DNA of 64,000 nt from Dipteris shenzhenensis (Eukaryota). Under the pieces are notes generated by a model. The model saw only the letters and a program-made list of their open reading frames with translations, was not told the origin of the DNA and ran no database searches. Location: the NCBI GenBank assembly GCA_047967505.1, contig CM106538.1, one strand, 5' to 3'. Shown here one piece after another: positions 997 to 52,469 of the stretch (its first letter is position 1; every line of letters begins with the position of its first letter). Position numbers and translations under genes: made by a program.

Positions 997-3900
997 GTAC
1001 CACCACGTCAACTTGAAGGAGCCACACTCTCTAGCATCCTAAGTTGCCCTGTGTCAATTCCCATCGGAATCCTCCTATGGAATTGTCCCAATCTATGGGA
1101 GAGTTTCAAAGGATGGATTGAACTCACAAATCCCCCTCCACCTATGAACGACATCGAGGATATCACTGTGCGGATGGGTGAGAGAGATGACATATGCAAC
1201 ATTACTATGCCTTTGATCCACAAGCCATATAATGAAGTCAAAGCCATAGTGGATGGTGGAGCAGGTGTAAATGTCCTATCAAAGGAGTTCTATGAAGAAT
1301 GGGGTCTCCCACCAATGCAAAAGGCTAATTTTAACATACACCTTGCCAATGATTCCCGGGCTAAACCCTTGGGAATAGTGAATGTTGTGTCCACAAAGAT
1401 CGCAAGAGTCTACTTTTCCTTTCAATTCAAAATCTTGGATCTCCCCAAAAAATCCTATCAAATCTTACTGGGACGTCCTTGGTTACAAGAAGCATCAGTC
1501 CTCCATGACTGGGGAATTGATAGACTAACAATCCAGAATCGCGACATTGCAGTCAGGGTGAATGTGGGGACAGGAGCTATTAAACCAATTGTGCCTAGAG
1601 CATTGGATGACACATCTTCAACAACAATCTCAAGCAAATCAGCTTTCTTGCAATAGCATGCCATAGCAGGTGACTCATAAAGCAATGCCAATAACTGGAT
1701 ACAAACATTGGCAACCATCCACAACTGACATTCATTAGATCCCATCTTCTCACAGATAGATGCTTAGTGCTACAGGTAGATCCTCCACTCCCACATGAAG
1801 AACTAATCGATCTAGAGATGCCATTCTTTATGGCTAAACTCGAGTGGGATAATGAACCTGAAGAAGATACCCATACCAATGATGACTCAGATTTTCCTTG
1901 GGACCTTGAAACAAATGTTGAGAATGCTAAAATTGAAGGTCAAATCTTTGATAATGACTTAGACATTCTGCATGCCCTAATGGCAGTCGAGCTCCCAAAA
2001 GTTAAACCTCCAAAGTTGAATAATAGCAAAAGATCCCACAAGAAAGCTGGAGGAAATCGCAAAAAAGCCAAGGCCGCGAGCACTTCAATGAATTCGAACA
2101 AGTCCAATCAAGGATCATCGAATTGTACCTTGCAAAGTTAGCTCCCTCAAAATCAGAACCACTGCCTCTTGAATGGTCCCTTGAGGGACTGGAAGGAGTA
2201 TGCGCAGCAAATGAACCCTTGGCAACACCTTACCAGTGGAAAAGTTACCCCACAGTTCCCAACGTAAGAAGTTTTGAAAGTATAAGCCACATATGCAAAT
2301 GAAGCTCAATCAAGAGACTTCAGAAAAAGAAAGTCAAAATGAGCCTAACAAATTGGTAAATGAAACGATGCAACCCAGTACACATGGCATATGTCAGGCT
2401 AGTTCAACACCATCAAAGGTCAATCTTCGAGAAGTGCCGGAATACTTCAAGAATTACACTAGTGGTAGTGCACCAATAGCAATGCCAAGACCACTAAGAG
2501 AATCTGAAGTTCAAGAAACTGATAGCATTGGAGAAACTCCAATCTATGAGGGACTGGCAAAAACACGCACAATAAACCTCGCCCTTGAAGGGGAGGAAGA
2601 AAAACTGGTTTTCATTGGGAAACAACTTCGACAAGAAGATGAAACCAAACTCAAAGCACTCCTAATGGAATACCATGACTACCTTGCATGGTCATAGAAA
2701 GAGATGAAAGGAATTTCACCAAAAGTGGCAGTACACACAATACCTATAAGGGAAGGTGCTCACCCTAAGGTATGTGGACCTTATCGCACAAATCCTAAAT
2801 ATGGCACCATGGTTTATGACGAGCTGGAAAAACTCCTAGATGTCGGATTCATCCACGAGATAGAGCACATTGATTGGGTTTCACCCATTGTCATTGTGCC
2901 TAAATGCAACAAGAAGCTCAAAATATGCATAAACTTACAAAATATGAATGCTGCCACAATTAGGGATCACTATCCCCTACCTTTAACAAAAATACTGTCG
3001 GAAAAGTTGGCAACTTAAAAAATATATAGATTCTTGGATGGCTTCAGTGGCTATAACCAAGTGCAAATCGCTCCTACAGACCAATCAAAGACAACATTTC
3101 TATAGAATGGGGTATTTTTACAAATAGAGTCATGCCATTTGGCCTTTGTAATGCCCCGGCCACATTCCAGCGAGTCATGTTCATAGCTTTCAAGTCATTT
3201 TTGAATAAGTTTTTACAGGTGTTCTTGGATGATTTTTGCATCCATTCAAACAAACAAGACCACTTCAAATGTCTTGAAGCAGCACTAATCAAATGCAGGG
3301 AGTATGGCATTTCCCTAAATCCAACAAAATGCCAGTTCATGGTCACCCACGGAGTTGTTTTGGGACACATCGTCTCTCAACATGGGATTGCAGCTGACAT
3401 GGATAAAATCAAAATCATCATGGAATTGCCTCCCTACAAATTCCAAAGGTGTACAGGTCTTTATGGGACATGCTGGCGATTATAGAAGATTTATATTGTG
3501 GTATGCCATGATAGCTAGACCACTTTACAAATTATTAGTGGATTTCTTATGGATCGAAGAGTGCGACCAAGCCTTTGAGCTTCTAAAGTGGCGCCTAATC
3601 ATAGCTCCCATCCTTATATCTCCCAATTGGGATATTGATTTTCATGTTCATACTGATGGATCCAAGTATGCAATTGGGAGTGTGCTTTATCAACCTGGTG
3701 AACATAAGAAAGACTACCCATTCTACTTTGCCAGTCGACAACTCAATGATGCAGAGATCAACTATACCACCATAGAAAGAGAAGCCCTAGCAATGGTGTA
3801 TAGTGTCAAGAAATTTTGGCACTATCTACTGGCAAATGATTTTGTCTTCTACACCGACCATCAAGCATTGCTTTATCTTGTGAATCGTCCTTGTACAATA

Positions 3901-5330
3901 GGAAGAATAACCAAATGGCTCCTCTTGCTTCAAGAATTCAACTTCAAAATAGTGGTCCGCAAAGGTGCCCAACACTACATTACTGATCACATGTCTCATG
4001 TCAAGTCGAGAGAAGAAGCCACTAGAGTAGAAGATGACTTACTAGATGCCACACTATTTCAAATAGATGCTGTTCCAGAGTGGTGTGGAGATATCATTGG
4101 GTACTTGATGGTAGGAAGACCACCCCCTGAAATGAGAGCAGTAGATGCTAGAAAATTGATTCTAAAGGCTGCACCCTATCAACTCATTGTAGGACAACTG
4201 TATAAGATGGGCAAGGATCATATTTAAGAAGATGTGTAACGCCTCATGAGATCATGCCAATCCTGAGTGAAGTCCATGAAGGCATTGTAGGAGGACACTT
4301 CCAAGGGGAAGCCACAGCAAGAAAAGTTCTCCTCACAGGCTACTGGTGGCCAACGCTATGGGCAGATGCCTATGAATATGTAAAAGGTCGTGATGTATGC
4401 TAATAGACTACTAAACCACAACACAAAGACTTCAATCCCCTAACAATAGTTGTTGCACAAAAACCACTTGAAAAATGGAGGATTGACTATGTGGGTCCCA
4501 TACATCCAGCAGCAAAAGGAACACAAGCATGCTACATCATTGTGGCCATTGATTACTTTACAAAATGGGCTGAAGCTAAAGCAGTCAGAAAGGCAGATGC
4601 TAAAAGCATAGCAAGATTCTTATATGAAAATGTGATCACCTGATTCAGATGCCCCATTGAAATTGTGTCAGATAGAGGCACACATTTTGTCAATGAGGTA
4701 ATCCAAGAACTCTTGTCTCATTTCATGGTAATCAATACAGAAAGCACACCCTACTATCTCCAAGGGAATGGACAGGCTGAATCCACCAACAAAATAATAT
4801 GCATTATCCTCACCAAGGTAGTAGAACCATAGCATTCTGATTGGGCAGAGAAACTGAATGCAGCCTTATGGGCATTCAGAACCACATTCAAGGTCAGCAC
4901 AAGGAACACACCTTTTCAATTGGTGTATGGCCTTGAAGCTATGGTCCCACTCGAATTTGTAATACCAAGCCTATGCATATCAGTATAGGAATGCATGGGA
5001 GACCATGAATCCTTGCAAGAAAGGCTCAATTAGTTGAGGAAGCATACAAAGACAAGATTAGTCGCCTACCATGCCATGACAATAGAAAAATGTGGAAGAA
5101 AGGCATGGTTTGATATAAATTTGAAAGCTAAAGACATTAAGGAAGGCGACTTAGTCCTGTTATACAATGCCAAAGTACACAAGGGGAAACTAAAGTATCT
5201 AGGTCAAGGACCCTACCGAGTACGAAAGATGAATCCCATCAAAGCTTTGCTGCTAGAAACATTGGATGGAGTCCAATTCAACACAATAATAAAGGGGAGC
5301 TGATTGAAGCGCTACTACAACAACATGTAA
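997..5330 (+). pseudogene. Gypsy pol (protease-RT-RNase H-integrase), many stops and frameshifts
   Basis: IVDGGAGVN protease; MPFGLCNAPATFQ and FLDD (RT); TDGS..IG, NY..EREALA, TDH (RNase H); GPY motif in the integrase C-terminus. Confidence 0.95.
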
Positions 5331-5522
5331 GCCATCCTCGACAAAAACAAAGATTTGGGAAACCAAGTCTTCCTTAGGATTAGATTGTATCATGAGCACT
5401 CACTTGCATATGTACGTCTTCGCAAATATAGGTAGCATCAATCAATTTTAAGCTAGGGCTCAGAAGTGATGCCTGAGTTCTAGCTGCCCTATGAAAACCC
5501 CAGTAATAAAAAAAGCATATAG

Positions 5523-5554
5523 CATTAGGAAAAAAGGGAGCTCATTTTGGGGCC
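5523..5554 (+). repeat. Left TIR CATTAGGAAAAAAGGGAGCTCATTTTGGGGCC
   Basis: Reverse complement of 12820-12851 with 2 mismatches. Confidence 0.92.
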
Positions 5555-6013
5555 TTTTACGGTTTGGAAAAATAAGCTCTCAACCAATCAATAGAAGGCC
5601 AACGTAACGTTGAAAATTCACGAAAATAAGAGAAAATAGAAAAAAGAAACAATACTTTATGTAAGTACAAGCGTGCTACATTAATGAGGAGATTGGTTTT
5701 TTATTCGTAGAAGATCTTTGGACAAGAAGATAGAATCTAAACTGACATTTTATCTGACAAGATCCTTCCCGCTTCCACCTTCCTTTGAATTTTCAAATAT
5801 TGTGCCGCCTTTCGTGCGAAAGGTCTACCATTCTACACCATTGCCTCATTGTGCAACTGCCTTCCTTTTCCAAAACTGCTCCCTTGATCCTGTTTGGTGT
5901 AGAGTAAGATGTTTCTCGTCAACTGTCTGTTTGCCCACTTTCTCTTTCTTGAAACTTCAAATTGTTATCTTAGTTACATTACTTTGCTATTCTTACAGAT
6001 TCAGAAAATCTCC

Positions 6014-7453
6014 ATGGTGAACCAAAACCACGGCCGTTCTTGTGCAAGACGCTCTGTGGATGATAATGCTACGAAGGCAGAATTATACCAAACATCCTTA
6101 CCCCGTCGACCTGCTTCTTCTATTTCGTCGGTAGAGAATTCAAGTACAGTCAAAACAGAAGGAACTTGGGAAAGGTTTAGTGTTTCGAAAGGAGCATGGG
6201 TGCTCATGCAACCTAGCAAAAGAAAAAGACCCCAGACAAAAAACATTTTCTTGGCATCGTGGAAGGGAAGAGTACGAGATTTTAAAATCACCAAAGGGAA
6301 GATATCCGTGAAAGAAGTTTTGATTCAGCACGTGTACATGCATAAAGAACTTGTCTTGCGAGACTATCCAAAAAATCTTCCGCAACACAGGCCTAATTGT
6401 ATATTTTTCTATTGTGGTTTTTTCCTTCATGAGGTGTATGGATTTTTAAGATGAAGCTTTCTCTCTTAACTTATTGACATTCTTGTGTTGTTTTATTTCA
6501 GATTTATATCCTTCATCGTATGAGACATGGCAAAACATCGATTGTATTTTGGGATTTATAGATGTTCTGCATGGATCGATAGGAGAACAACAATACCAAG
6601 GTCGATGTGCAACAGAGCTAGCTCAATCGGGTATATTTTTTACTGATCATTTTTATCAGTTGCTGGACAAAGCTAACACACATGGTGTATTAATAAAACA
6701 AGACCTTCCGGCATGGAATTCGGTGGATTGGCCTCACCCACATTCTAGTGTTACAGAGGCATATAGGGCGAAGCTTTTTACAGAAGTACAGAAAGCTCTG
6801 AGGCCCAATATTGCCACTAGGATAGTAAAAATTTCTTTGTGCATGCCTCTCACAGTTTTTGTAGACTTGTTTAATACCTTTCCAGTAAAGGTTTCAAAAA
6901 CAATGCTCACAGTTAAAGCAACAAATTCGGCATGCATGCCACAATTTTTGGATAAAGGTTGGGATAAGAAGACATGTAGTTCAGTGTTTTGTGAGGTGGT
7001 CCAACCTTCTATGCAACTGAAGTACATGGTTGCATCACAAAATCTTATTTTCTCTTTTTATTACAAGCGCAGTCGAATGCTAGGTTCAAAGCTTGTCCCA
7101 ATGGACCAAGATGAAGAGTCGTTTGGTGCACAAAATAAACTTATTGATATTGATGTTCTTGAGAATGGTGATGTGGTAGCCAGTATCTCGTTAAGAGAAT
7201 GTTGCTCCCTAGCTCAATTACGCAGTGACATTCTGTTTGAGACTGAAGGTTCTATCTCAAACGACTTTTTATTTATCTACAAGAACAGAAAGGTACACCA
7301 TCTGATTTATCCTAGTCTCTATAAGCATTGCTATTAGTTTAATTTACCACTCTAATTCATATTGCTTTTTTGCAGTTACTCAGAAGAAGAGAGAGCTCAG
7401 TTAAATGCAAAGACATAGAAAATTTTAAAATTGAGATCACACATACTCCATAA
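6014..7453 (+). CDS. Spliced ~417-aa protein: N-terminal BAH-like domain, unknown middle domain, C-terminal ubiquitin-like (beta-grasp) domain
   Basis: Exons 6014-6398, 6502-7292 and 7376-7453 are joined by GT-AG introns that keep frame with no stop. BAH-like pattern: WVLM..WKGRV..VLIQHVYMHKEL..PNYLYPSSYETWQNIDCILGFIDVL. Ubl-like pattern: SLAQLRSDI..DFLFIYKNRKL..RESSVKCKDI. Domain names are from pattern recognition only. Confidence 0.7.
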
Positions 7454-7537
7454 AGAAAGGTTTTGTATTCAATCAAGTAAGATTTTGTACAGAATTGTTT
7501 AGCTGAATCTGTAGAACATATTTCTAACATCCATTTT

Positions 7538-9632
7538 CTATTTATGTACAGTTTCATCCAGAGGCTGCTCTACATTTTCTGGAGGATCTTCTCTCTGCTG
7601 CTCCATCCTGTCCGTGCTTCATCCTGTCTCCTCCACTGCCCCAGAAGCCTCTCTTTGCTGCTTCTCCACCTTCTCCTCAACATCAACAGCAGGTCTTTGC
7701 TCCTGTGTCTGCTCCTCCTCAGCACTCTGTGATTGCTCCTGTGGCTTCTGGTCCTCAACATCAGGTGCTTCATATGTGGGATCAAGGTGTATGACACCTT
7801 CTTGTACTTTAGAGCTTTCACCCAGCTCCACAGTAGCTGCTACAATAGGTTTGGGGGAGGCATAGCTCAAAAACCTCAAAATTGTATGAGCTCTAAAATT
7901 ATGTACATAGTTGGGGCTGAAGCTATCCTCTTTCATCTGCAATGGCAGAGGATAATTTAGAACACTTTGTATCATTATGAATTATATTCAAGCTAAATGA
8001 AAAGTATTTTTCCTTACCAGATCTGGCTGTTCCTTTTCAAAGTAGCTTGAAAGTATATATTTTGCATTGATCAGCACCCTCCATCCACAACTACTTGAAT
8101 CATTTTGTTGTGGTGTCTGTACAGTTAGAAAAAAATGTTAGAAACTGTGAGCATCAGCACAAAACAAAATTATTCAATAAGTTCAAAGACATAGCATTTA
8201 ATAGACCTTTTACCTGTAGACTTAATGGCTCTATTGAATCCAACAGAGAGACATTTGGAGGACAATGATCCAATGCATCTAATAGCCTTCTAATACAACT
8301 GCAATATGTATAATTTAGTTAGTATGGTATCAAAATAATGAAGTTTTGAGTTCAGAAAGCACACACAGTAGTTACAATTTCAGCTCTCTGTGTGTGTTTT
8401 TTAGAGAGTTGAATAGAAAGCACTGCTTCTGCTAGATGTCAATAGACACAAAACTCCAGTGGTCACTGCATAAGGAAAAAAGCATAAGCAAATGAAAGGC
8501 TACAAGAGTTCCCAATATTAAAGAAGAATCTTAAAAGAAGTAGTCACCCACATACCTGCTATGATATGGAAGTAGCAAAATGTCAATTACTTCAAAATTG
8601 CAGTGTTTGAACCAGCTGGAAATACTCATGGGAGTCTCTTTTGCATCTCTTAATCTAGAAGAAATGGCTGGATCAACAATATGGACTGTATGTTGTACAG
8701 AGGGATGAAGCCAGCTTCTCATCATGCTGCATAGGATCAGAACATAATTAGGGTAGGTTATAAAAGAGTTACAAGGAGGATTGATTTGCAAAAAATGTAA
8801 AATCTAAAGACACTTACTAGAGCATTGCAAGAATGATAGTATCTGAGCAATACTCATTCTTGTTAGCCAATGCTGCTAAGCATTGTTTTGTCAAATCAAA
8901 ATCATTGACTGAAACTTCATCCTCAATATGTACAACTACATCAGGGCCCAGCTCCTTCAACCTTCTATGTATGTGTAGCTCCTTCTTTCCAGTTTCCACA
9001 TCTATCACAGATTTTGTTTCTTTTACTTGCTGCTTCAGTGAGTCCTCATAAGCAGCCTTCCCTCTGGTGTTCTTTGAGTGTGTTACCTCAACAACCTTTA
9101 CCTCATCAACCTTGACCTTCCTTGTAGGTGGAATTAGCAATATATCTCTCATTTTGATGTCCTGCCATTCCACAGGATGAACCAGCTTGTCATATCTCCA
9201 TCTCACTCTGGACAAAGTGTTGAAATCTTTGGCCATCAAAGTCACCCTGTGAGCATGGGCTGCTACAAGCATTGCATCCTCAAAATATTTCTCCAGGTAA
9301 TCCTCTGCCATTTCCTGCAAGGAAAGAATGGCAGTTCTATTCCACCTGAACCCAAGGTTCCAACTGTCACAAATTTCTCTCACCAGTCTTTGAAAGGGTG
9401 CTTTGGGTATTGCAAAACCTATGGCTTTCTGTTGCCTCCTTATTTCCCTAAGCACACCTGCACCCTTATTCAATCTTTTGGCCTTTTGCTTGAGCAAGCT
9501 CATTGGCTTACCCTTCTTGCCATGTGAAGCTCTTCCCTTTGGAGGAACACTAAACTTCTTGGAACCTGTCCCAGCTGCTGTTGCTGCTGGTCCTTTGCCA
9601 ACTTGCCTTGCAGTTGATTTGGTTCTTGCCAT
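7538..9632 (-). pseudogene. Histone H3-like domain fused to a Ulp1/C48 SUMO protease plus acidic tail (6 coding exons; premature stop in exon 3)
   Basis: Exons 9632-8818, 8726-8556, 8465-8376, 8298-8214, 8116-8018 and 7936-7619 (or 7538). All five introns are GT-AG, 77-97 nt, and phase-compatible. H3 motifs: ARTKSTAR, LREIRRQQK, PFQRLVREI, LQEMAEDYL, HAHRVTLMAKD. Ulp1 motifs: DILLLPYH, DHWSFVSID, FNSL, PQQNDSSSCG. In-frame TAG at 8434-8432. Confidence 0.88.
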
Positions 9633-9689
9633 CACTCTGAAAAACTGCATACAAAGGATTGGAAAGAGATCAAAGACATGAAGAACATG

Positions 9690-10600
9690 TTTTTACAAAG
9701 AAAAGGCAATCACAGGGGTGGTAGAAGACAAATAGAGAAATTTGCAATAAAATGCGATATGAGCAGTTTGGAATTTCAAACAGGTCCACATCGCATTTTG
9801 CTGCAAATTTTTTAAATGAAATGCTGGTGCACTCCTACAGTGATTTCTATGTTTCTCCAACCAAATATAGTATGAATGGAGGTCATTCAAGAAGATCACA
9901 TGCAAATATCACACTTGAAGATCTGCATTCCTTCAGTGATTTCTCTGTCTTGGTTTGAGCCTATGCATTTCCATACAGGATGTAATTTTTCTATTTTAGG
10001 CAAGAAGATTGCAGAGGCTAAGGGGAGTCACAAAACCAGACATGTTCTCATTAAGAAAAGGCAATTACAGAGGTGGAAGAAGCCAAATAGACAAATTTAC
10101 AATAAAATGCGATATGAGCAGTTTGGAATTTCAAACAGGTCCACATCGCATTTTGCTGCAAATTTCTGAAATGACATGCTGGTGAACTTCTACAGTGATT
10201 TCTTTGTCTCTCCAGCCAAATACAGTATGAATGGAGTTTATGCAAGAAGACTACAGCTATGGAAGTCAAAAAACCAGAACATGTTCTCACAAAGAGAAGG
10301 CAATCACAGGGGTGGAAGAAGCCAAATAGAGAAATTTGCAATAAAATGCGATATGAGCAGTTTGGAATTTCAAACAGGTCCACATCGCATTTTGCTGCAA
10401 ATTTTCTAAATGACATGCTGGTGCACTCCTACAGTGATTTCTATGTTTCTCCAACCAAATACAGTATGAATGGAGGTTAGGCAAGAAGATCACATGCAAA
10501 TATCACACTTGAAGATCTGCTTTCCTACAGTGATTTCTTTGTCTTGGTTTGAGTCTATGCATTTCCATACAGTATGTTTTTTTTCTATTTTAGGCAAAAA
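9690..10600. repeat. Tandem ~240-355 bp repeats, each containing a ~72-bp imperfect palindrome (3 copies)
   Basis: AATTTGCAATAAAATGCGATATGAGCAGTTTGGAATTTCAAACAGGTCCACATCGCATTTTGCTGCAAATT at ~9739, ~10094 and ~10333. Confidence 0.9.
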
Positions 10601-10830
10601 GATTGCAGAGACTAAGGGGAGAACCCATTGTTCCTGACCTGGAGTCTATCTGTGGATGTGCTGTGCTGCTGAGGAGTAATCTGTGCTGAGGATGATTCTG
10701 TGCTGCTGGACAAGATGCTGATGCTGCAGAGTATGGAGGTAGGGAGGCAAGAGGGCAGAGACTGGAGGGCAAGAGTTCTAAAACAGGATACCACAAAGAA
10801 GTGCAAAATGAATTAAAGAATCACTAAATC

Positions 10831-10910
10831 CCACACGTGTGGAATCTAGTCGTTTTTCACACGTGTGGATGGGACCCAGATCTCTTGGAGTTTGAAATCT
10901 GGCACGTGTG
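10831..10910. promoter_or_regulatory. Cluster of three G-boxes (CACGTG) and a GGGACCCA site; candidate (bidirectional) promoter
   Basis: CCACACGTGTGG at 10831-10842, CACACGTGTG at 10858-10867, GGCACGTGTG at 10901-10910, upstream of the H3-Ulp1 gene. Confidence 0.45.
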
Positions 10911-11329
10911 AAAGTACACTTTATTCCTTGGAACTTGTGCCATTCATTATTTCATCATGAATACCACAACCACTTTTCCCTCCCCTGGATTCCAATCTCT
11001 CATCCCTGCCACGACTCTCTCCTGATCCTTTCTCTCTGATTCTTTCCTGCCCAGCACACTCCATCCAGATTGCAGCCTGCCTGAAGACAGTACTGCCAGA
11101 TCTCCAGGTTACCTAGAGTGCAAGGTTCAAGCTAGAGAAAGAGCAGGAGATTTACCAGTGCAACTCAATCAGCATGGAAAAGGAAAAAAAAGGTCAGAGT
11201 TCTAGTTTGGTTTCAATGTTTTTCAACATTTATTTCTTCCATCCATTGGATTTTTTATGTCCCAATGTCTTCACTCAGCTCCATCCTTCTTCCACAATGT
11301 GGTAAATCACCCAAAAATTAGATTGTAGG

Positions 11330-11791
11330 TTGATATGAACAGAAACAAGAAATTTGCAACAAAATGCGAGGAGAGTGGTTTGGAATTCTCTAAACAGCCC
11401 ATATCGCATTTTGCTGCAAATTCCTGTTGTGGACTCCTTGCTCATGAAAATTTTCATTCATTCCATTTTTTCTCTTGCATATGAGAGCATAGTGTCCAGG
11501 AATCACTGAAATGAAGCAAGTGCTTGATTTGACATGCACATGAACAGAACTTGAGAATTTGCAACAAAATGCGAGGAGAGTGGTTTATAGTTCTCTAAAC
11601 AGCCCATATCGCATTTTGCTGCAAATTCCTGTTGTTGACACATTCCTCATGAATAGTATCACTCATTCCATTATTTCTCTTGCATGTGAGATCATAGTGT
11701 CCAGGAATCACTGAGATGAACCAAGTTCTTGATTTGACATGCACATGACCAGAATTTGAGAATTTGCAACAAAATGCGAGGAGAGTGGTTT
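11330..11791. repeat. Second array (~205-bp unit) with a variant of the same palindrome; third copy truncated
   Basis: AATTTGCAACAAAATGCGAGGAGAGTGGTTT...ATATCGCATTTTGCTGCAAATT at ~11351 and ~11556; partial copy at 11761-11791. Confidence 0.88.
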
Positions 11792-12450
11792 GACTATATT
11801 ATTCAGCACCTCCATTCTTATTTTGCGACAATCAACGAAATAGATATAGTCTGGAAGAGAGCCTTTTTGAGTATACAAAATGATAAATTTCAATCTAACC
11901 TTGCTTCCTGAATTCGTCGCTTGCATCCACCAGTCCCAGCCTTCAAATTTGCAATGTTTTTAATCTTCCTGCTACGTTGTCTGTCTCCAAGCACGGTTCT
12001 CTTCTTTCTTGCTCTTGTCAATTCTTTTTTACTCTTTGAATGCTCCTCGATTTCATTCTGCAACTGCTGCTCCAATTTTGCACGAATGGCTATCTCCTCC
12101 ATCTTGGCCCCCTTTTCTTGTAGGTACATCATTTTATACGTTTCCGCAAATGCAGATTGCGCTGAAATATAACCAAGAAGTCCATTTTGTCCATCGCCGG
12201 CAAACCTCAGTAATGTGGTGGGATTGACAAATGGAGGTGTAGAGTTTTTTACTTGACATTTTGGATATATGCTTCCGTCGCACCATAAGTCAATATGTTG
12301 AAGCCCTTCTCTTCTCATATTTTCCCGCTGTTGAGCATTCAGCACCGTATCCTTTCGTCTTTTTTGTGCTGGAGCATATTGTTCTTCCAAGTCGATGTGA
12401 AGATGGTGTAATCGCTTCTTCTCAGATAGTGACTCACTAGTATCGGCCAT
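11792..12450 (-). pseudogene. Truncated ORF starting inside the right TIR end (coiled-coil/basic); possibly the N-terminus of the lost transposase
   Basis: 186-aa ORF (12450-11890). About 100 bp past its stop the sequence abuts a truncated repeat unit at 11791, which looks like a deletion junction. No catalytic motif seen. Confidence 0.45.
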
Positions 12451-12819
12451 TTTTTGTGCTCCTCAGGTTGCGAAGTTTGTTTTTCAATCTCATAGTCGTT
12501 TTGTAACATGAATCGTGGAAGTGTGGCGGTATCCATGTGAATATTTTGAAAACTTGCAATCACTAAGTTCAGTGATGGACTCTTAATGAAAGACCTGCAC
12601 ACGTCGGCCAAAGAGATGCGGAATCTTTGGTAAACAAAAAAAAATCTAAGAGGATATTTAATACAAAATCGTGTTAGTCAGACAAAATATTATCTTATTC
12701 CTTTTTGAATTGACAGTTCTGTAGTCCTTACTGACAAATCTGAGCCACGTTTCCGTATTTTACTATTTTTGAGGTCTTTTAGGAGAGAAATAAATCAAAA
12801 AATAGTGAATTTCTTACAG

Positions 12820-12851
12820 GGCCCCAAAATGAGTTCCCTTTTTCCCTAATG
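12820..12851 (-). repeat. Right TIR
   Basis: GGCCCCAAAATGAGTTCCCTTTTTCCCTAATG, reverse complement of the left TIR. Confidence 0.92.
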
Positions 12852-13212
12852 TTAGTCCATACCTAGCTACTAGGTCATGTGCACTCATACGCTTTCTCTT
12901 AGACACATAGATGATTGCATGAATAATTATACCACACACTTTCATTTCACACTCTCAAAGCATGTATAAAAATAAGATTTCTCACACACACACAAAAAGG
13001 TCATACCAACATGCCAACACCACATGCACATGGATGCAGGTTTAGAGATGCCATCACTAAAGAGGATGCACAAAAAGAGCCCACTGCCTCAACCATGAGA
13101 CCCCCTCTAGAGTTCACATCAATCTACATCCTCTCAACCATGGCGACCATAGCCATTCATGGTCCAACGCGATAGCTCCGAAGAGGATTTAGTGGATGAC
13201 CAAGAAGAACAA

Positions 13213-14726
13213 ATGCCACCCTAGTCACCAACGGCCTACACAGCCATTGACGGGGCCTAGTCATTGGAACTTGTTTGGCCACCCACATCGACTTATGCTC
13301 TTTCCTAGGAAGCAACATCTTACTTAGAGCAAAGGGGTCTAGCCAGTTTGCATGAGAGCCTAAAATCCTTGGAGGACAGTTCTACAATGACCACATACAT
13401 CAAGGACTTTTTCCATTCTTACCACTCCAACAATGCAAAGGTTGGCAATACGGTACAATCACTGTACATCAGAGCCCACTAAATATTATCCTCGATAGTA
13501 CAGTCATTGAAAGGGATTTCTCACTGCCAACATAAGGTGCCAAATACCCTAATCGGCCTGCTGATGCAAAGTTTATCAAAGTACAGTGTCTCCTCACCAA
13601 GGGCACACTAATCCATAGAGACGGCATATTGCTTTGCACAATCCTTGACCATCGCCTCACGGAAGTAAGACAATTCCTATCCACAATCCTGGGGGTTAAG
13701 TGTGGCAAGAATCGATCCCTTCCACTCCGCACATTTGTTTTGTTGAGTAGGAAGCTAAAACAAGACTGGGTCCAGCACTTAGTCATCTTCTTTACAAAGA
13801 AACTAGATGGTTCTTTAGGCCAAAAATGTAAAATTCCACACTTATTGGCTATAATCATAAAAAAAGAACCACAAGAAAGAGAAATGACTCTGCCCCATGA
13901 CTCTAGCCCAGTCACCAAAACCAATGAGGAGTTGGACATACCTTTCTCACCAGTATGGGAGCCGTCACCAACTTCTCCTACTATAACATTGATAGGTGCA
14001 GTTGCCTTAGAAGAAATACCTATTCTGGAGGCTAGGATTGCAGAATTGCCTCAAGAGATGCTACAACTCGGTGCACAATTGCAACCAATATATCTCTAAC
14101 AACAGCAGCAACCAGAGCTCGAGGCAAGATTGGCACTAGAACCTGAGGAAAGATTGGCACCAAAGCCTGAGGCTACATTAGTACTAGAACCACCCATCGA
14201 CGCCATGCCAGTAGATGAGCCACAAGGGGAGCTAGTGCCAGATCAACAGTATGACTATTGTACACAAGGGACTAAAATACCATTGGAACAACCTCCCCCA
14301 AGTACTATAGAATCATCGGGCTGGCTACATGGGCACCATTTGTATCAGCAGTATCGCTAGACCTCATCACTGTCTGTCATTCTCCAACATCAAGCTAGCC
14401 AGATGATCCAAATGTTAGAACTATTCACTAGCTTGGCCAAGGAGGAATATGCAAGACAATTGGAAAGACAGACTGCAATAGAAATTGAAGACCAATTCCA
14501 AGCAATCGCCATAGAGGTCAAGGCAGTTTGGCACAGATAGATGAGAAGGAGGTAGAAGAAGTGCGCATGAACCAAGCTCTCCAAGCTCAAGAGAAGGCAG
14601 TGAGGGATGTGACCTCCAACCTCCACCAAAGTCAAACACGGCTGACAATAGTAGTACAAGCAATGGCAATCCTACATACCTACTATAACTCCTTGACATT
14701 TGCACATGCTCAACAGATGGAGGTAG
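13213..14726 (+). pseudogene. Gypsy copy 1 extra 3' ORF (5' part), decayed
   Basis: Homologous to 52470-53973 (LPLRTFVLLSRKLKQDWVQH). Confidence 0.85.
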
Positions 14727-14983
14727 TGACAAAATATGAAGAGGGGAGAGGAGAAGAGTGGAGATGAGGAGAAAGGGCACAGCTAGAGAGCACACCACAA
14801 ATGACTAACTGTACACTAGATTTAGTTGAAAAAATAGAATATATACAAACCCTTTTAGGGTTAGGGCTAGGGGATCTAACCCTTTCCTTCATAGCACTCT
14901 ATAAGGTTAGTGCTATGCACATATGATCACGTGATGGTGCTATGCACACATGATCACATGATGTTGAGCGTGAACTCTCAACA
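14727..14983 (-). repeat. Copia A 3' LTR
   Basis: TG..CA; near-identical to 25448-25696 and 29637-29893. Confidence 0.93.
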
Positions 14984-15587
14984 CCTTCCCTCAAGATCAA
15001 CATCATGAAGTAGGCCTTCCCTCAAGATGATGATTCTAGGGAATCGAAGAAGGACTGAGCATTACATTCCATCACACCCCTTTAATGGGAATTTCCTTCC
15101 TCTGTGTCAAACCAAGAGCTAATTGGTGTTTCTCAAAAAGCTCTTTACCGAGTGGTTTGGTAAAGATGTCTGCAACATTCTCTTTGCTACCATAATGCTG
15201 CAGTGTGATGTCACCAAGTAACACTCTTTCTCTGATGAAGTGCTCTCTAACATCAATGTGCTTTTTGTCCTGGAGTGATATACTGGATTTTTGGCCACCA
15301 ATGCTTGAGCTGATTGATTATCACAGTATATTGTTGTTGGCTTTGACTCATCAAAGTAATCTATTTCTGACAATAGTGTTCTGAGCCATATAGCCTCACA
15401 TGCACCTGTAGTGAGTGCCCTATATTTTGCTTCAGTCGAAGACAAAGAAACAGTTGGTTGTTTGTTTGACAACCATGATATAGCACCTTGACCAAGGAAA
15501 AATGCATATCCCTGTGTCGATCTCATGATCTTATGATCTCTAGCATAGTCACTATCATAGTATCCATGCAATCCTGGATGACTCCCT

Positions 15588-15885
15588 TGTTGAGATATCA
15601 AGCTCTACCCCCGATATATCTCCTGGATGACTATCATTTATGTCACCGCCTATGTTAGTTGTACTCGTGGTGTAGTTAGACTACCACGTATGTTTTTGGT
15701 TTGGGTTCACATATGAACCACGGATTCTAGGGTTTGACATATAGGGTATTTCCCTCTTCTATTGTATTGTTGTTGTGTGCAAAAGTGAAGAATGGCTTCA
15801 CCCTCCAACCTTGTGTCCTCTCTCTTTTGTGTGTTGTGAAGAAAGCTGAACTTGAGTCTCCTATCTCTCTCCCTTATTCTTTACA
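15588..15885 (+). repeat. Copia B 5' LTR
   Basis: TG..CA, direct repeat of 20686-20983. Confidence 0.97.
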
Positions 15886-16372
15886 TGGTATTAGAGCCTT
15901 GTTCGTGGTAAGGAGCTCAAGAAAGCAAGCCAAGTTTGTGGTGTCCTGGTAAGAGGACCAGTGTTGCTTTCCTATTTCGTGTTTGGGAGCAAATCTCTGC
16001 AGGTAGCACAGCCAGAAGTGCAGGAGTGCACTGTTTCTGATTTGAGGCCGTTTCGGGCCCCGTTTTGAAGGCGGAAGTTCTTCGCAGGCACTCAGAAAAA
16101 GGCCCTGTTTTTCGCTGTGCGCGGCTAGTCGGTGAAAAGGTGCCACAAAAATTGCATTGTATGCCTGCGTGCAGAGATATTGGGAGTTGCAGATTCATGC
16201 TTGTTGCCTGTTGATGCAAAATCGTCACTAGGAAGTGACTGTGTGGTGAAATACCACTTTCGTCAGTGTTGCAGATCTGCCCCTGTGAGGCTTTTTGCAG
16301 AAGTTTTGCTATTTGCCCTTGTGAGGCATTTGCTGTGTTTACAGGTTGCTGTTGCAATTCGTGATTTGTAAA

Positions 16373-45681: not shown

Positions 45682-48600
45682 ATGGCTGGACGTCGTCATG
45701 AGCATGATGGGGATATCGAGCTCGATGCACAGGCTGACAACTTCTTCAATCGACGAAATCACAAGAATCAAGGCCGACGCCCCTTGGGAAAACTGGAACT
45801 TCCCAAATATAATGGTAAGGGAGACCCAGCTCGCTTCCTCCAGCATTTTGATGCCGCATGTCGAGCAGGTGGTGATCAATCCCATGAAACCAAGGTGGCT
45901 TGGTTTCCAATGGCCTTAACTGATGAAGCGTCAGAATGGTACCTCGACCTTCTCGTGGAAGAACGTGCCACATGGGACCTACTTCAAACCGAATTCAAAC
46001 GTCGCTTTCAAACGGAGAGGCTACAAGATGATCCCGCTCTCTAACTCAGCAAGATCGAACAAGGCTGGAGGGAAGATGTACGCACATACCTGGGAAAGAT
46101 GAAGAGATTGATCGCCAAATGTGACCCACGCCCAGATGCAAAGTACCTCACGGCATGGTTCATAGCAGGTTTAAGAAAGAAAATCCGCAAGGATATGAAA
46201 AAGATAAGTAGCTATGAAACATTTAGTGCTGCTCATGCGGCAGCCATTGACATCGAAGATGGCATGACAGATTCAGACACTAGCAGTGATGACGCTAGAT
46301 CAAATACACGAGATAAGCGCTCGAAAAAAGGTAAATCAAAGGACACTGCCGAAACATCCAATGAAGATCGCCTAGAGGCCATGACCTTGATGCTGAAAGA
46401 AGATATGATGCAGGCCATGGATCAAAAACTCCACTTGTCTCAGCCACCAACTCAAACATATCCACAGCGAGAAAATGTCTGGTGCCCACACTGCTTGGCA
46501 AATCATACAACAAATGAATGCCCAGTCCTAAGAGCAAGGATCACTGCATAAGCAAATCCACCGCCACGATTGTGGTGCCATATCTGCGTCATTGACGGCC
46601 ATGATGAGAACAGTTGCATCTTCAACATGCGCAACAATCCGCCTCGACCGCCACAATACCAAGCGGTACCTATGCCAGTATACAGGCAACCAGCACTTGC
46701 ACAAGCACCACCAGCTCCAAGGCTAAATCCTGTTCCCGTTCGGACACAAGTCCCACAACTACTCAGGAATCCGAATCCACGACCGTATCCAAGAGCACCA
46801 AATCCAGCTCCTCAGGCAGTTCCCATACATCAATTACAAGCCGAGGAAGTAGACTCGCTATTTGAGTATGAAGCAGAGTACCCAGTGTACTATGTAGAAG
46901 GTGCAGAGGGTCTCATACCAGTCTATGCAAATCAAGTGCGACCCAACACATTTCGAGCACCAATCAAGTGTTACGGTTGTGGAGAAAATCATAGGATCGC
47001 AGAGTGCCCTCATCGTGGTAGCCCAGCCACTTTCCAACCACTCTGCAGAGATTGTGGCATAGGACATGCCTGTATGGATTGCCCCATGAAAAATAAGGTC
47101 CCAGAACAAACAGAGGTTAAGCTTGACATCCCCATCGGCATCATTGGGGTGGACCATCAAAGTCTGGGTCCCGGCAAGTCTAAGGTCACAACCTATCAAT
47201 GTAATTACACGCCAATAGAAAGAGGCCACGAAGGACCCTATCATTCCAATCCAACCGAAGTGACTTCTGAGAAAGAAAGCACAAGTGCCTCCACCTCTGC
47301 CAAGCAATGAGCAGCCGAGTTCATCCACATCAACTCCCGAGCCTCGAATAAAAGAAGCTCCATTCCCGAATGCAGAGGTGGAGAAGGCTCGTTTTCAGGT
47401 ACTTCAGCAATGGGTCCAGAATGAACAAGCTCAATTTGAGGCTCAGAAACAAGCTCAAGACCCACTCCATGACTTGGCCCCACAAAGTATTGATACTGTA
47501 CTCGAGCCTTTGTTCCAACAACAGACTCCACAACAGAATGTACCGCCACGTCAACTTGAAGGAGCCGCATTCTCTAGCATCCTGAGTTGCCCTGTGTCAA
47601 TTCCCATCGGAATCCTCTTACGGAATTGTCCCAATCTCTGGGAGAGTTTCAAAGGATGGATTGAACTCGCAAATCCCCCTCCACCAATGAACGACATTGA
47701 AGATATCCCTGTGCGGATGGGTGAGAACAATGACATACGCAACATCACTGTGCCTTTGATCCACAAGGCATATAATGAAGTCCAAGCCATAGTGGATGGT
47801 GGAGCAGGTGTCAATGTCCTATCAAAGGAGCTTTACGAAGAATGGGGTCTCCCACCAATGCAAAAGGCTAATTTCAACATACGCCTTACTGATGATTCAC
47901 GGGCTAAACCCTTGGGAATAGTGAATGGCGTGTCCACAAAGATTGCAGGAGTCCGCTTTTCCCTTCAATTCACAATCTTGGATCTCCCCAAAAAATCCTA
48001 TCAAATCTTACTAGGACGTCCTTGGTTACGGGAAGCATCAGTCCTCCATGACTGGGGAACGGATAGATTGACAATCCAGAATCGAGACACTGCAGTCAGG
48101 GTGAATGTGGGGATAGGAGCTATTAAACCAATTGTTCCTAGAGCATTAGATGACACATCTTCCACGACAATCTCGAGCAAATCAGCTCCCTTGCAACAGC
48201 ATGCCATAGCAGGTGACTCACAAATCAATGTCAATAACTGGATCCAAACATTGGCAACCATCGACAACTGCCATTCATTAGACCCCATTTTCTCACAAAT
48301 AGACGTTAACGCACTATAGGTCGATCCTCCACCGACACATGAAGAACCAATCGATCTAGAGATGCCATTCTTTATGGCTGACCTCGAATGGGATAATGAA
48401 CCTGAAGAAGGTTCCCATACCAATGATGACTCAGATTTTCCTTGGGACCTTGAAACAGAGGCTGCGAATGCTGAAATTGAAGATCAAATCTTTGATAATG
48501 ACCTAGCCATTCTGCATGCCCTAATGGCAGCTGAGCTCCCAAAAGTTGAACCTCCACAGTTGAATAACAGCAAAAGATCCCGCAAGAAAGCTACAGGAGG

Positions 48601-51600
48601 AAATCACAGAAAAGCCAAGGCCGAGCACTTCAATGAATTCGAACGAGTCCAAAGAAGGATTGGCGAATTGTATCTTGCAAAGGCAGTTCCCTCAAAATCA
48701 AAACCACCACCTCTTGCATGGTACCCTGAAGGACTGGAAGGAGTATGTGCAACACATGAACCCTTACTTGGAAACACCTTACCAGTGGAAAAGTTACCCC
48801 ATAGTTCCCAACGTAAGAAGTTTCGGAAATATAAGCCACATGTGCGGATGAAGCTCGATCAAGAGACTTCAGAAAAAGAAAGGAAAGAAGAGCCTAACAA
48901 ATTACTAAATGCAACTATGCCACCCAGTACACATGACACCTGCCAGGCTAGTTCAACCCCATCAGAGGCCGATCTTTGAGAAGTGCCAGAATACTTTAAG
49001 AATTATACAAGTGGCAGTGTACCAATAGCAATGCCAAGACCAATCAGAGAATCTGAAGTTCAAGAAACCGATAGCATTGGAGAAACTCCAATCTATGAGG
49101 GACCGGAAAAAACACGCACAATAAACCTCGCCCTTGAAGGGGAGGAAGAAAAATTGGTTTTCATTGGGAAACAGCTCCGTCAAGAAGATGAAATCAAACT
49201 CAAAGACCTCCTAATGGAATACCATGACTGCCTAGCATGGTCATACAAAGAGATGAAAGGAATTTCACTAGAAGTGGCAATGCACACGATACCTATAAGG
49301 GAAGGTGCTCGCCCTAAGGTATGTGGACCTTATCGCACAAATCCTAAATATGGCACCATGGATTATGACGAGCTGGAAAATCTCCTAGATGCCAGATTCA
49401 TCTACGAGATAGAGCACACTGATTGGGTTTCACCCATTGTCATTGTGCCTAAATGCAACAAGAAGCTTAGAATATGCGTAAACTTGAAAAATGTGAATGC
49501 CGCCACAATTAGGGATCACTACCCCCTACCCTTAACAGAAACAGTGTTGGAAAAGGTGGCCGGATCTGAAATATATAGCTTCTTGGATGGCTTCAGTGGC
49601 TATAACCAAGTGCAAATTACTCCTCAAGACCAATCAAAAACAGCATTTGCTACAGAATGGGGTATTTTTGCATATAGAGTCATGCCATTCGGCCTTTGTA
49701 ATGCCCCAGCCACATTCCAGTGAATCATGTTCACATCTTTCAAGTCATTTTTGAATAAGTTTTTACAGGTGTTCTTGGATGATTTGTGCATCCATTCAAA
49801 CAAACAGGACCACTTCAAATGTCTTGAAGAAGTACTAATCAAATGCAGGGAGTATGGTATCTCCCTAAATCCAACAAAATGCCAGTTCATGGTCACCCAC
49901 GGAGTTGTTTTGGGACACATCGTCTCTCAACATGGGATTGCAACTGACATGGACAAAATCAAAATCATCATGGAATTGCCTCCTCCTACAAATTCCAAAG
50001 GTGTACAGGTCTTTATAATGGGACATGCCGGCTATTATAGAAGATTTATATTGTGGTATGCCATGATAGCTAGACCACTATACAAATTATTAGTGGAGTT
50101 CTTATGGACCGAAGAGTGCGACCAAGCCTTTGAGCTTTTAAAGTGGCGCCTAATCACAACACCCATCCTTATATCTCCCAATTGGGATATTGATTTTCAT
50201 GTTCATACTGATGGATCCAAGTATGCAATTGGGAGTGTGCTTTGTCAAGCTGGTGAACATAAGAAAGACTACCCCGTCTACTTCGCCAGTCGACAACGCA
50301 ATGATGCAGAGATCAACTACACAACCATAGAAAGAGAAGCCCTAGCAATGGTGTATAGTGTAAAGAAATTTCGGCACTATCTACTCGCAAATGATTTTGT
50401 CTTCTACACTGACCATCAAGCATTGCTTTATCTTGTGAACCGTCCGTGTACCACAGGAAGAATAACCAGATGGCTCCTCTTGCTGCAAGAATTCAACTTC
50501 AAAATCGTGGTCCGCAAAGGTGCCCAACACTACATTGCCGATCACATGTCTCGAGTCAAGACAAGAGAAGAAGCCACTGAAGTAGAAGAAGACTTACCAG
50601 ATGCCACACTATTTCAAATAGATGATGTTCTAGAATGGTGTGGAGATATCATTGGGTACTTGATGGGAGGAAGACCACCCCCTGACATGAAAGCAGTAGA
50701 TGCCAGAAAATTGATTCTAAATGCTGCACCCTATCAACTCATTGCAGGACAACTGTACAAGATGGGAAAGGACCAGATATTAAGAAGATGTGTAATGCCT
50801 CATGAGATCCTGCCAATTCTAAGTGAAGTCCATGAAGGCATTGCAGGAGGACACTTCCAAGGGGAAGCCACAGCAAGAAAAGTTCTCCTCGCAGGCTACT
50901 GGTGGCCAACACTGTCGGCATATGCCTATGAATATGTAAAAGGCTGTGATGTATGCCAACGGACTATTAAACCACAACACAAAGACTTCAATCCCCTAAC
51001 AACAGTTGTTGCACAACAACCATTTGAAAAATGGGGGATTGACTATGTGGGTCCCATACATCCAGCAGCAAAAGGAACACAGGAACGCTACATCATTGTG
51101 GCCACTGATTACTTTACAAAATGGGCTGAAGCTAAAGCAGTCAGAAAGGCAGATGCCAAAAGCACAACAAGATTCTTATACGAACATGTGATCACCCGAT
51201 TCGGATGCCCCATTGAAATTGTGTCGGATAGAGGCACACATTTTGTCAATGAGGTAATCCAAGAACTCTTGTTTGGCTTCATGGTCATCCATAGAAAAAG
51301 CACACCCTACTACCCCCAAGGGAATGGACTAGCAGAATCCATAAACAAAATCATATGCAATATCCTCACCAAGGTAGTAGAACCACAGCGTTCTGATTAG
51401 GCAGAGAAACTGAATGCAGCCTTATGGGCATACAGAACCACATTCAAGGTCAGTACAGGGAACACACCTTTTCAATTGGTGTACGGCCTTGAAGTTGTGG
51501 TCCCACTCAAATTTGTAATACCAAGTCTATGCATCGCAGTACAGGAATGCATGGGTGATCATGAGTCCTTGAAAGAAAGGCTCTGTCAGTTGGAAAAGCA

Positions 51601-51937
51601 TACAGAGACAAGACTAGTCGCTTATCATGCCATGACAACAGAAAAACGTCGACAAAAGGCATGGTTTGACAGGAATCTGAAAGCTAAAGACATCAAGGAA
51701 GGCGACTTAGTCCTGTTATACAATGCCAAAGTACACAAGGGAAAACTGAAGTATCTAGGTCAAGGACCCTACCGAGTACGAAAGATGAATCCCATCGGAG
51801 CTGTGCTACTAGAAACACTAGATGGAGTCCAATTCAACACAATAATAAACGGGAGCCGACTGAAGCACTACTACATCAACACGCGAGCCATCCCCGACAA
51901 AAACGAAGATTTGGGAAACCAAGTCTTCCTTAGTTAG
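45682..51937 (+). pseudogene. Gypsy gag-pol with several premature stops and a frameshift
   Basis: LPKYNGKGDP gag; four CCHC-like knuckles; IVDGGAGVN; LDGFSGYNQ and FLDD; RNase H; HHCC zinc finger; DYVG/SDRG integrase; GPY. Confidence 0.95.
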
Positions 51938-52469
51938 GATTAGATTGTATCACGAGCACTCACTTGCATATGTACGTCTTCGCACATATAGGTAGCATCA
52001 ATAGATTTTACCTAGAGCTCAGAAGTGATGATGAGTTCTAGCTGCCCTATGAAAATCCCAACAAAAAAAGCATATAGTTAGTCCCTACTTAGCTACTAGG
52101 TCACGTGCACTCACACGCTTTCGCTTAGACACATAGATGATTGCATGAATAATTGTACCACACACTTTCATTCCACACTCTCAAAGGATGTATAACAAAA
52201 AAAAAAAAAAGGGATCTCTCTCCCACACACACACAGAAAGGTCATACAGGCATGCCAATCAATTTGATGATCAATGGTACACTACATGTACATGGATGCA
52301 GGTTCAGAAAAGATGCCGCCACTAAAGAGGATGCGCAAAAAGAGCCCACCGCCTCAACCACGGGACCCCCTCTAGAGTTCGCAGCCATCTACATCCTCTC
52401 AACCACGGAGACCACATGCATTCGTGGTCCAAAGCGATAGCTCCATCAGTGCATGACCAAGCAGAACAA

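Follow-up and report, generated by a model that had tools for sequence, protein, structure and literature searches.

Positions 6,014 to 7,453 of a 64,000-nucleotide stretch of Dipteris shenzhenensis DNA (NCBI GenBank assembly GCA_047967505.1, contig CM106538.1; the whole stretch is here called the window) carry a three-exon gene for a protein of 417 amino acids, and it is this gene, its product and the DNA element in which it lies that we describe here. A first-pass annotation, made from the letters alone, had read the gene as coding for a histone-tail or nucleosome reader with a BAH-like N-terminus and a ubiquitin-like (Ubl) C-terminus, convergent with a gene for an H3-Ulp1 protein. The gene model and both folds were borne out by our analysis. 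A third domain of about 140 residues had been overlooked, and the implied setting of an ordinary host gene did not hold: the gene sits in a 7.3-kb insertion, bounded by terminal inverted repeats (TIRs), within a gypsy retroelement, and belongs to a large multi-copy family. The parts of the gene and of its product are these.

Exon 1, 6014..6398, plus strand: codons 1-128 and the first base of codon 129, from the start ATG at 6014; encodes the variable N-terminus, then the first half of the BAH fold (relatives P0009-P0011)
Intron 1, 6399..6501, plus strand: 103 nt, phase 1, GC content 0.29, borders ATT/GTATAT ... TTTCAG/AT; splits the BAH domain
Exon 2, 6502..7292, plus strand: second half of the BAH fold, middle domain and first three elements of the Ubl fold
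Intron 2, 7293..7375, plus strand: 83 nt, phase 0, GC content 0.31, borders AAG/GTACAC ... TTGCAG/TT
Exon 3, 7376..7453, plus strand: final 25 codons (last Ubl strands) and the stop codon TAA at 7451-7453
Variable Ser/Arg-rich N-terminus: protein residues 1 to about 32
Predicted BAH-fold domain, 6110..6704, plus strand: residues about 33-196, intron 1 inside; mapped through the alignment with the relative P0040
Predicted middle alpha/beta domain, 6705..7133, plus strand: residues about 197-339; from the exon-2 model
Predicted SUMO-like beta-grasp domain, 7134..7450, plus strand: residues about 340-417, intron 2 inside; no terminal Gly-Gly (GG)

Joined by these coordinates, the exons give a coding sequence of 1254 nt, or 417 codons, whose sole stop is terminal; none of 2000 shuffles of its letters was stop-free. 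The GC content is 0.393 in the exons versus 0.291 and 0.313 in the two introns. Junction 1 reads ..RPN-Y-LYPSSY.., and the protein ends in ..ITHTP, with no GG. Support for the junctions comes from homology, not from RNA. All seven longer relatives that we tried by BLASTP matched the spliced protein, the best documented being P0035 (residues 31-404 of the spliced protein against 195-581, 28% identity, E 5.8e-53) and P0040 (28-406 against 2-407, 26% identity, E 1.6e-43). Both alignments are single stretches, gap-free at both junctions. At junction 1 the window sequence stands opposite ..PCNYLYPSF.. of P0040; at junction 2, ..FIYKNRK/LLRRRESSVKCK stands opposite ..FLYNGKKVLKRRERTILCK of P0035, whose alignment continues, again gap-free, 12 residues into exon 3.

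The close relatives mark the same borders in another way. A word-based search returned eight relatives of the exon-2 product (among 224 candidates; 44-88% identity) and three of the exon-1 product (P0009-P0011, among ten), all of them open reading frames (ORFs) called on short genomic contigs. Those related to exon 2 begin a few residues before ..YPSSY.. and extend a few residues past ..K/V.., where the likeness ends; ORF ends at both exon-2 borders have the look of conserved intron positions under prokaryote-style gene calling of genomic DNA. The same was seen across the wider family, in which 62 ORFs extend to the start of the exon-2 profile, 47 of them beginning no more than 31 amino acids upstream of it, and 35 extend to its end, 33 of them stopping no more than 35 amino acids past it. 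The 15 ORFs that extend further upstream include P0040 (418 amino acids), P0053, P0068 and P0035 (594 amino acids); a search for longer relatives of 462-2000 amino acids found none. A metagenome scan with one of our alignments (A1) gave a single locus, L001, among 320 pattern matches. Its relative, at 39% identity, has an intron placed as intron 2 and a last exon of 24 codons that shares the RRE..VK pattern of exon 3; BLASTP of the exon-3 peptides of the window and L001 yields no alignment, the peptides being too short. We regard the three-exon gene model, as drawn from sequence and homology, as established short of RNA proof: the coordinates, the GT..AG introns, the lone terminal stop and the gap-free homology over the junctions all agree with the intact gene of 417 amino acids first proposed.

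The family to which the protein belongs is large. With an alignment of exon-2 products, HMMER found 206 cluster representatives at E<=1e-3 (123 at <=1e-10 and 33 at <=1e-30), the clusters sharing less than 50% identity with one another; 154 of 157 family proteins matched when re-scored locally with the profile. The relatives found in this way are mostly scattered fragments. Named members come only from two species, Adiantum nelumboides and A. capillus-veneris, in both cases as hypothetical proteins; the A. capillus-veneris member is annotated at two loci. The P0035 cluster stands out, with 29 near-identical members of 593-594 amino acids on contigs of about 2.2 kb and an extra N-terminus of about 190 amino acids that bears a weak Zn_ribbon_LapB match (2.6e-5, just under the cut-off). 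Because neither intron is present, we take this cluster to be transcribed; its members are probably spliced transcripts of an expressed copy, perhaps one owned by the host.

AlphaFold models imply that the protein has three folded parts. For P0040, a family alignment of 123 rows, the window exon products among them, gave a mean pLDDT of 90.8 and a pTM of 0.82; the window exon-2 product, with 118 alignment rows, gave a pLDDT of 89.8 and a pTM of 0.83. A Foldseek search with the P0040 model returned 65 matches at E<=1e-3, and all those among the matches listed were BAH-containing chains (TNRC18, Orc1p, EBS, BAHCC1, ASH1L, DNMT1, DIM2, Sir3, ORC1, SHL, AIPP3, ZMET2 and MTA1), with E-values from 1.3e-5, a probability of 1.0 and TM (target) scores of 0.44-0.62. 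VIA-align, run against 48,161 representative chains, divided its 50 rows between the two ends of the same model. Eighteen were BAH domains aligned within residues 1 to about 200 (Z 12.8-8.6), led by the BAH-PHD region of ORC1b (Z 12.8, root-mean-square deviation (rmsd) 3.4, 135 residues aligned), EBS (12.1) and PBRM1 (12.1), and the BAH-matching part of P0040 spans residues 7-189. The other 32 were beta-grasp or Ubl domains aligned to residues from about 334 to 418 (Z 10.9-8.3), of which the UBX domain of PUX5 was best (Z 10.9, rmsd 2.1, 77 residues aligned); others were kindlin F0, the TBCE Ubl domain, SUMO2 (Z 8.9) and ISG15 (Z 8.8). The structure searches recovered, on the relative, both of the folds suggested at the outset.

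The C-terminal domain has the beta-beta-alpha-beta-beta-(helix)-beta order of a grasp fold; the window exon-2 model displays its first two strands and the helix, and exon 3 encodes the remainder. Against PDB sequences the family profile placed diSUMO-2 on top, with a weak, borderline E of 0.0087, followed by SUMO-2 at 0.65; four sequences reached E<=10, and three of these are SUMO proteins if CG4494-PA, presumably a SUMO, is counted. The ends of P0040 (..VVPC) and P0035 (..VKEC), like that of the window protein, lack a di-glycine. The missing terminal GG, which the initial reading had also pointed out, suggests a built-in Ubl domain that would serve as a binding module and not as a conjugated modifier. 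In the BAH part, a histidine (H106 in the window) is nearly invariant, along with P67, W83, K84 and F90, and lies in a conserved H-x-Y/F; it may occupy the place of the tryptophan in the W-x-Y cage of BAH domains that read methyl-lysine.

Between these two parts lies a confidently modelled domain of about 140 residues. As judged from the exon-2 model, within which it was searched, it provisionally has no known fold: Foldseek gave no match at E<=1e-3, and the highest Z that VIA-align reported among 48,161 chains was 4.0, with none at Z>=5. The predicted protein is therefore a BAH fold, a middle domain without known fold and a non-conjugatable SUMO-like beta-grasp in one chain; in the libraries that we searched, this combination is new, and so is the family. 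When both exon products were run against PDB sequences with phmmer, no match had an E below 0.7, and the protein atlas gave no usable match for exon 2. The literature searched held no description of a transposon gene that joins BAH and Ubl domains, and none of an H3-Ulp1 fusion; supplements such as Table S6 of PMC12973397 might list such domains.

The surroundings of the gene are those of a mobile element. The features concerned are the following.

Insertion, 5523..12851, no strand: splits a gypsy retroelement; carries the gene described here, an H3-like/Ulp1-like gene, repeat arrays and a third ORF
Left terminal inverted repeat, 5523..5554, plus strand: 32 nt, starts CATTAGG
Right terminal inverted repeat, 12820..12851, minus strand: 30 of 32 positions identical to the left repeat

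A first gypsy copy, at 997-5522, matches a second, at 47540-52077, with 90.9% identity. The likeness stops at 5522 and resumes at 12851, where 12851-14734 matches 52077-53981 with 85.5% identity, implying that the 7.3 kb between is an insertion. The 32-nt pattern has exactly two occurrences in the window, in inverted orientation, at the two ends of this insertion; none of 100 shuffles matched it.

We then compared the contigs of four public runs with positions 5600-9700, a stretch that excludes the inverted ends. In run X4, 2607 contig pieces fell on this stretch at 85-100% identity, covering all 30 bins (363 at >=99%, 884 at 95-99%, 996 at 90-95% and 364 at <90%), and joints in them skip internal parts, for example from 5889 to 6375 and from 5889 to 7556. 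The spread of identities and the skipping joints look like those of a repeat family that has diverged and produced deletion derivatives, and the element is likely to be multi-copy in the source genome as well. Six of the nine exon variants listed, a selected subset beside which there are 177 further variants, are synonymous, a hint of constraint.

The second gene in the insertion runs toward the first.

Convergent neighbour, 7619..9632, minus strand: H3-like histone fold in exon 1 (9632-8819), then Ulp1-like exons
In-frame TAG, 8432..8434, minus strand: within 8372-8464, ten codons past the DHW of a Ulp1-like exon

Exon 1 of the neighbour has a 271-residue product, the first 130 or so residues of which match Pfam Histone at 1.4e-26. 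The next exons, joined through GT..AG sites, show Ulp1-like motifs when read by eye (..LPYHS-SDHW.. and ..QQNDSSSCGW..); Pfam Peptidase_C48 matched none of four neighbour exon frames. The Ulp1-like exon reads DHWSFVSIDI, TAG, QKQCFLFNSL.., and we assume that the Asn in ..LFNSL.. sits where the catalytic Asp (..DS..) of Ulp1 proteases is expected. Because of the in-frame TAG and this Asn, the neighbour is probably dead in this copy under the most direct exon model, and the gene that we describe is open. This break had escaped the first reading. The H3-like product begins MARTKSTARQVGKG.. (9632-9453, minus strand). The canonical H3 tail is ARTKQTARKS; set against this sequence, the product presumably retains K4 and has Q at the place of K9, so that it would not be methylatable at that position.

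The stop codons of the two genes, at 7453 and 7619, are 166 nt apart, in keeping with the short distance between convergent 3' ends noted at first. At L001, the stop of the relative is followed, at a distance of 7 nt, by the end of an opposite-strand ORF that has an acidic tail; the start of this ORF weakly resembles the last Ulp1-like exon of the window, with a Smith-Waterman score that was reached by 21 of 2000 shuffles. From these sequence likenesses the tail-to-tail pairing may be old, not securely so.

Each part of this system has known counterparts. The P0040 model shares its fold with the BAH readers ORC1b BAH-PHD (5hh7), EBS (5z8n), AIPP3 (7cce), TNRC18 (8ds8) and BAHCC1 (6vil), with about 130-145 residues aligned at Z 12.8-11.4, rmsd 3.2-4.2 and Foldseek E-values of about 1e-5; the identity is only 12-19%, and none of the seven family proteins searched has a Pfam BAH match. 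None of the BAH readers matched has a C-terminal Ubl domain, and the protein described here lacks the PHD, TFIIS, Tudor or AAA+ part that accompanies BAH elsewhere. In EBS-type readers the cage is W-x-Y, where this family presumably has its H-x-Y/F. The beta-grasp is shared with UBX domains (PUX5, 9v9o; FAF1, 3qq8) and with SUMO and SUMO-like domains at Z 10.9-8.3, and the domain is C-terminal and without GG, as in non-conjugatable Ubl domains; the seven family proteins searched have no Pfam match to UBX, Rad60-SLD or ubiquitin. SUMO-like domains also include those of the Rad60-Esc2-NIP45 type. No UBX or SUMO-like family is known to join its Ubl domain to a BAH domain.

The element also has partial precedents. 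Accessory genes bearing Ulp1 domains occur in plant Mutator-like elements, KAONASHI/KIU among them, and VANDAL elements encode VANC; through VANC-type proteins, elements escape silencing (PMC13317346, PMC2836005). In plant TIR elements that are active, Peptidase_C48 is a recurrent find in the accessory proteins (PMC12973397). That plant DNA elements capture genes, and Ulp1 domains with them, is documented in PMC13317346, which describes the role of the Ulp1 cargo of transposons as still unknown. The passages concerned of PMC13317346, PMC2836005 and PMC12973397 mention no BAH, SUMO-like or histone-fold cargo. Like KAONASHI/KIU, VANDAL and Ginger1, the studied element is a DNA element with a non-transposase gene tied to the SUMO pathway. 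It differs from Mutator, KAONASHI, VANDAL and Ginger elements in that these have a MURA or Ginger transposase and a target duplication of 9-10 bp or 4 bp, neither of which was found here; Ginger1 transposases themselves carry Ulp1 domains, and VANDAL elements lack TIRs, which the studied element has. Its termini start with CATTA, one letter off the CACTA of CACTA (En/Spm) elements, to which a gene model of A. nelumboides, P0071, also links a family piece through a weak TNP1-like stretch; the 3-bp target duplication of CACTA elements is absent here, and no TNP1 or TNP2 was found in the window. We rejected assignment to CACTA, MULE, hAT or PIF on the grounds that no fitting target duplication or transposase is present, and to Helitrons because the ends are inverted repeats and do not fit Helitron termini.

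Overall, these data suggest, with a probability that we would put at about 0.55, an accessory protein borne by the element, which would bind chromatin through its BAH domain and offer its SUMO-like domain as a docking surface for proteins of the SUMO pathway. This view draws on the known roles of BAH domains and of built-in SUMO-like or UBX domains, and on the plant precedents for element-borne Ulp1 and anti-silencing proteins. The protein would be nuclear. Nucleosomes or histone tails would serve as docking sites for its BAH domain; the SUMO-like domain would act as a fixed handle for SUMO-pathway proteins, possibly including, as a partner, the Ulp1-like protease encoded tail-to-tail with it; and the outcome, possibly to the benefit of the element, would be an altered chromatin state or targeting of the element itself.

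Several observations weigh against this interpretation. Pfam identified no transposase family on the ORFs of the element, implying that it is non-autonomous at best, if mobile. No target-site duplication is visible: set against the uninterrupted gypsy copy (..GCATATAGTTAGTCC..), the flanks (..GCATATAG, element, TTAGTCC..) overlap by 0-1 bp, and since the gypsy copies differ by 9-15% a short duplication could be blurred. Judged by its sequence, the element thus appears without assignment to a superfamily. The products modelled were P0040, at 26% identity, and that of exon 2 rather than the complete window protein, and Pfam, including its BAH and ubiquitin models, matched none of seven proteins at E<=1 (P0040, P0035, P0053, P0041, P0057 and the products of window exons 1 and 2, each of which carries just half of the BAH domain). 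Introns 1 and 2 have no RNA evidence, and contigs of run X3 pass through both unspliced; this run is only guessed to be RNA, and its unspliced contigs show neither absent splicing nor silence. The neighbour is broken in this copy by its TAG, and BLASTP of the L001 tail ORF against the Ulp1-like exon of the window gave an E of 0.28, which is not significant. The evidence for repetition stems from another run, X4, and the 64-kb window contains one copy of the element only. Finally, the same picture would be expected of a captured host gene that does nothing for the element.

It is this last alternative that survives best: transduplication of a host gene whose product is a chromatin protein of BAH/SUMO-like type, the copy now being inert cargo that is still open by chance. 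We hold it to be possible, if doubtful. In its favour, no transposase was detected in the element, the neighbouring gene is already broken, such capture by plant DNA elements, also of Ulp1 domains, is documented (PMC13317346), and the P0035 cluster, with its different N-terminus, resembles a transcribed and perhaps host version of the gene. Captured pieces are usually fragments, however, whereas here three exons and two introns are complete and 417 codons are still open, with six of the nine listed variants synonymous; 206 clusters are more than a single host gene would be expected to yield, given how few ferns have been sequenced, and the tail-to-tail arrangement recurs, with a weak likeness, beside the 39%-identical relative at L001.

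A bolder version of the accessory-protein interpretation, which we consider improbable, would make the two convergent genes a transposon-encoded chromatin device, an H3 look-alike joined to a SUMO protease and a BAH reader joined to a SUMO look-alike, that counters SUMO-dependent silencing. The H3-like tail or nucleosomes of the host would be the ligand of the BAH domain, and the active-site cleft of Ulp1 would receive the SUMO-like domain; between them, the two products would direct de-SUMOylation to the chromatin of the element, or present a decoy nucleosome surface there, and so blunt silencing by SUMO-dependent heterochromatin. If true, this would be a new kind of anti-silencing system in ferns.

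That the gene is the host's own, an ordinary one present in a single copy and encoding a histone reader in a repeat-rich region, would account for the intact frame, the canonical introns and a BAH fold like those of the plant readers EBS and ORC1b. It is unlikely in view of the 32-nt inverted repeats that flank the gene exactly at the interruption of the gypsy element, the 2607 contig pieces of run X4 on this stretch and the mostly fragmentary, scattered relatives. That there is no gene at all, the ORFs and splice-like sites having arisen by chance in decayed repeat DNA, is scarcely credible: it has the lack of RNA evidence on its side and nothing more, against shuffles that were never stop-free, collinear alignments to relatives over both junctions and a family alignment that supports models at a pLDDT of about 90.

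Very few DNA elements are known to encode chromatin-directed proteins of their own, VANC of VANDAL and the Ulp1-bearing Mutator-like elements (MULEs) being examples. To these the present family adds a BAH fold, a SUMO-like domain and a middle domain, tail-to-tail with an H3-like/Ulp1-like gene, which makes directly testable the idea that transposons manipulate SUMO-dependent silencing through adaptors bound to nucleosomes. The models also offer a first structural description of an unnamed, well-folding family of more than 200 clusters. The gene sets of ferns, moreover, include element-borne members of the family, as the 'hypothetical proteins' of Adiantum illustrate.

Some further features of the family, the gene and the element were recorded. 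The A. nelumboides protein P0071 (MCO5612822.1, 668 amino acids) combines a weak TNP1/En-Spm-like stretch (Transposase_23, E 0.048, below the Pfam cut-off) with 86 residues of a BAH half and unrelated sequence; its gene model probably came about by merging across the debris of elements. Three additional features lie outside the coding exons described above.

Candidate 5' untranslated region (UTR) intron, 5904..5998, plus strand: borders AGA/GTAAGA ... TTCTTACAG/AT, with GT..AG ends and a pyrimidine tract
Possible 3' UTR intron, or deletion in another copy, 7460..7551, plus strand: a 92-nt skip in one contig of run X3
Third ORF, 11893..12450, minus strand: 186 codons, rich in Lys, Arg and Glu, with a coiled-coil look at its end

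An in-frame upstream ATG at 5909 may serve as an alternative start; were the 5' UTR intron real, this ATG would be spliced out. One contig of run X3 switches to unrelated letters precisely at 5998. Another has the 92-nt skip, with GT..AG ends and 168 letters on its shorter side; the skip starts 6 nt past the stop codon, and the contig continues to 7757 and so enters the convergent gene at its 3' end. Either the skip is a 3' UTR intron and the convergent transcripts overlap, or another copy carries a deletion; we treat both breaks as no more than hints, whether of spliced UTRs or of other copies. Contigs of run X3 give zero cover on 7792-9700.

The third ORF has no Pfam family above chance and no match in the protein atlas. 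Rfam has no family in 5400-13000, and the window has no tRNAs. The window is dense with copia and gypsy retroelements. The gypsy copy that houses the insertion is full of stops, and the two gypsy copies (997-5522 with 12851-14734, and 47540-53981) are 86-91% alike; nested copia pieces follow at 14727-15886. Within the insertion, arrays at 9680-10620 and 11335-11791 have periods of about 239 and 205 nt, built around an imperfect palindrome of about 75 nt, AAATTTGCAA.AAAATGCGA ... TCGCATTTTGCTGCAAATTT, which occurs at least six times; these arrays could be binding sites or nested miniature elements.

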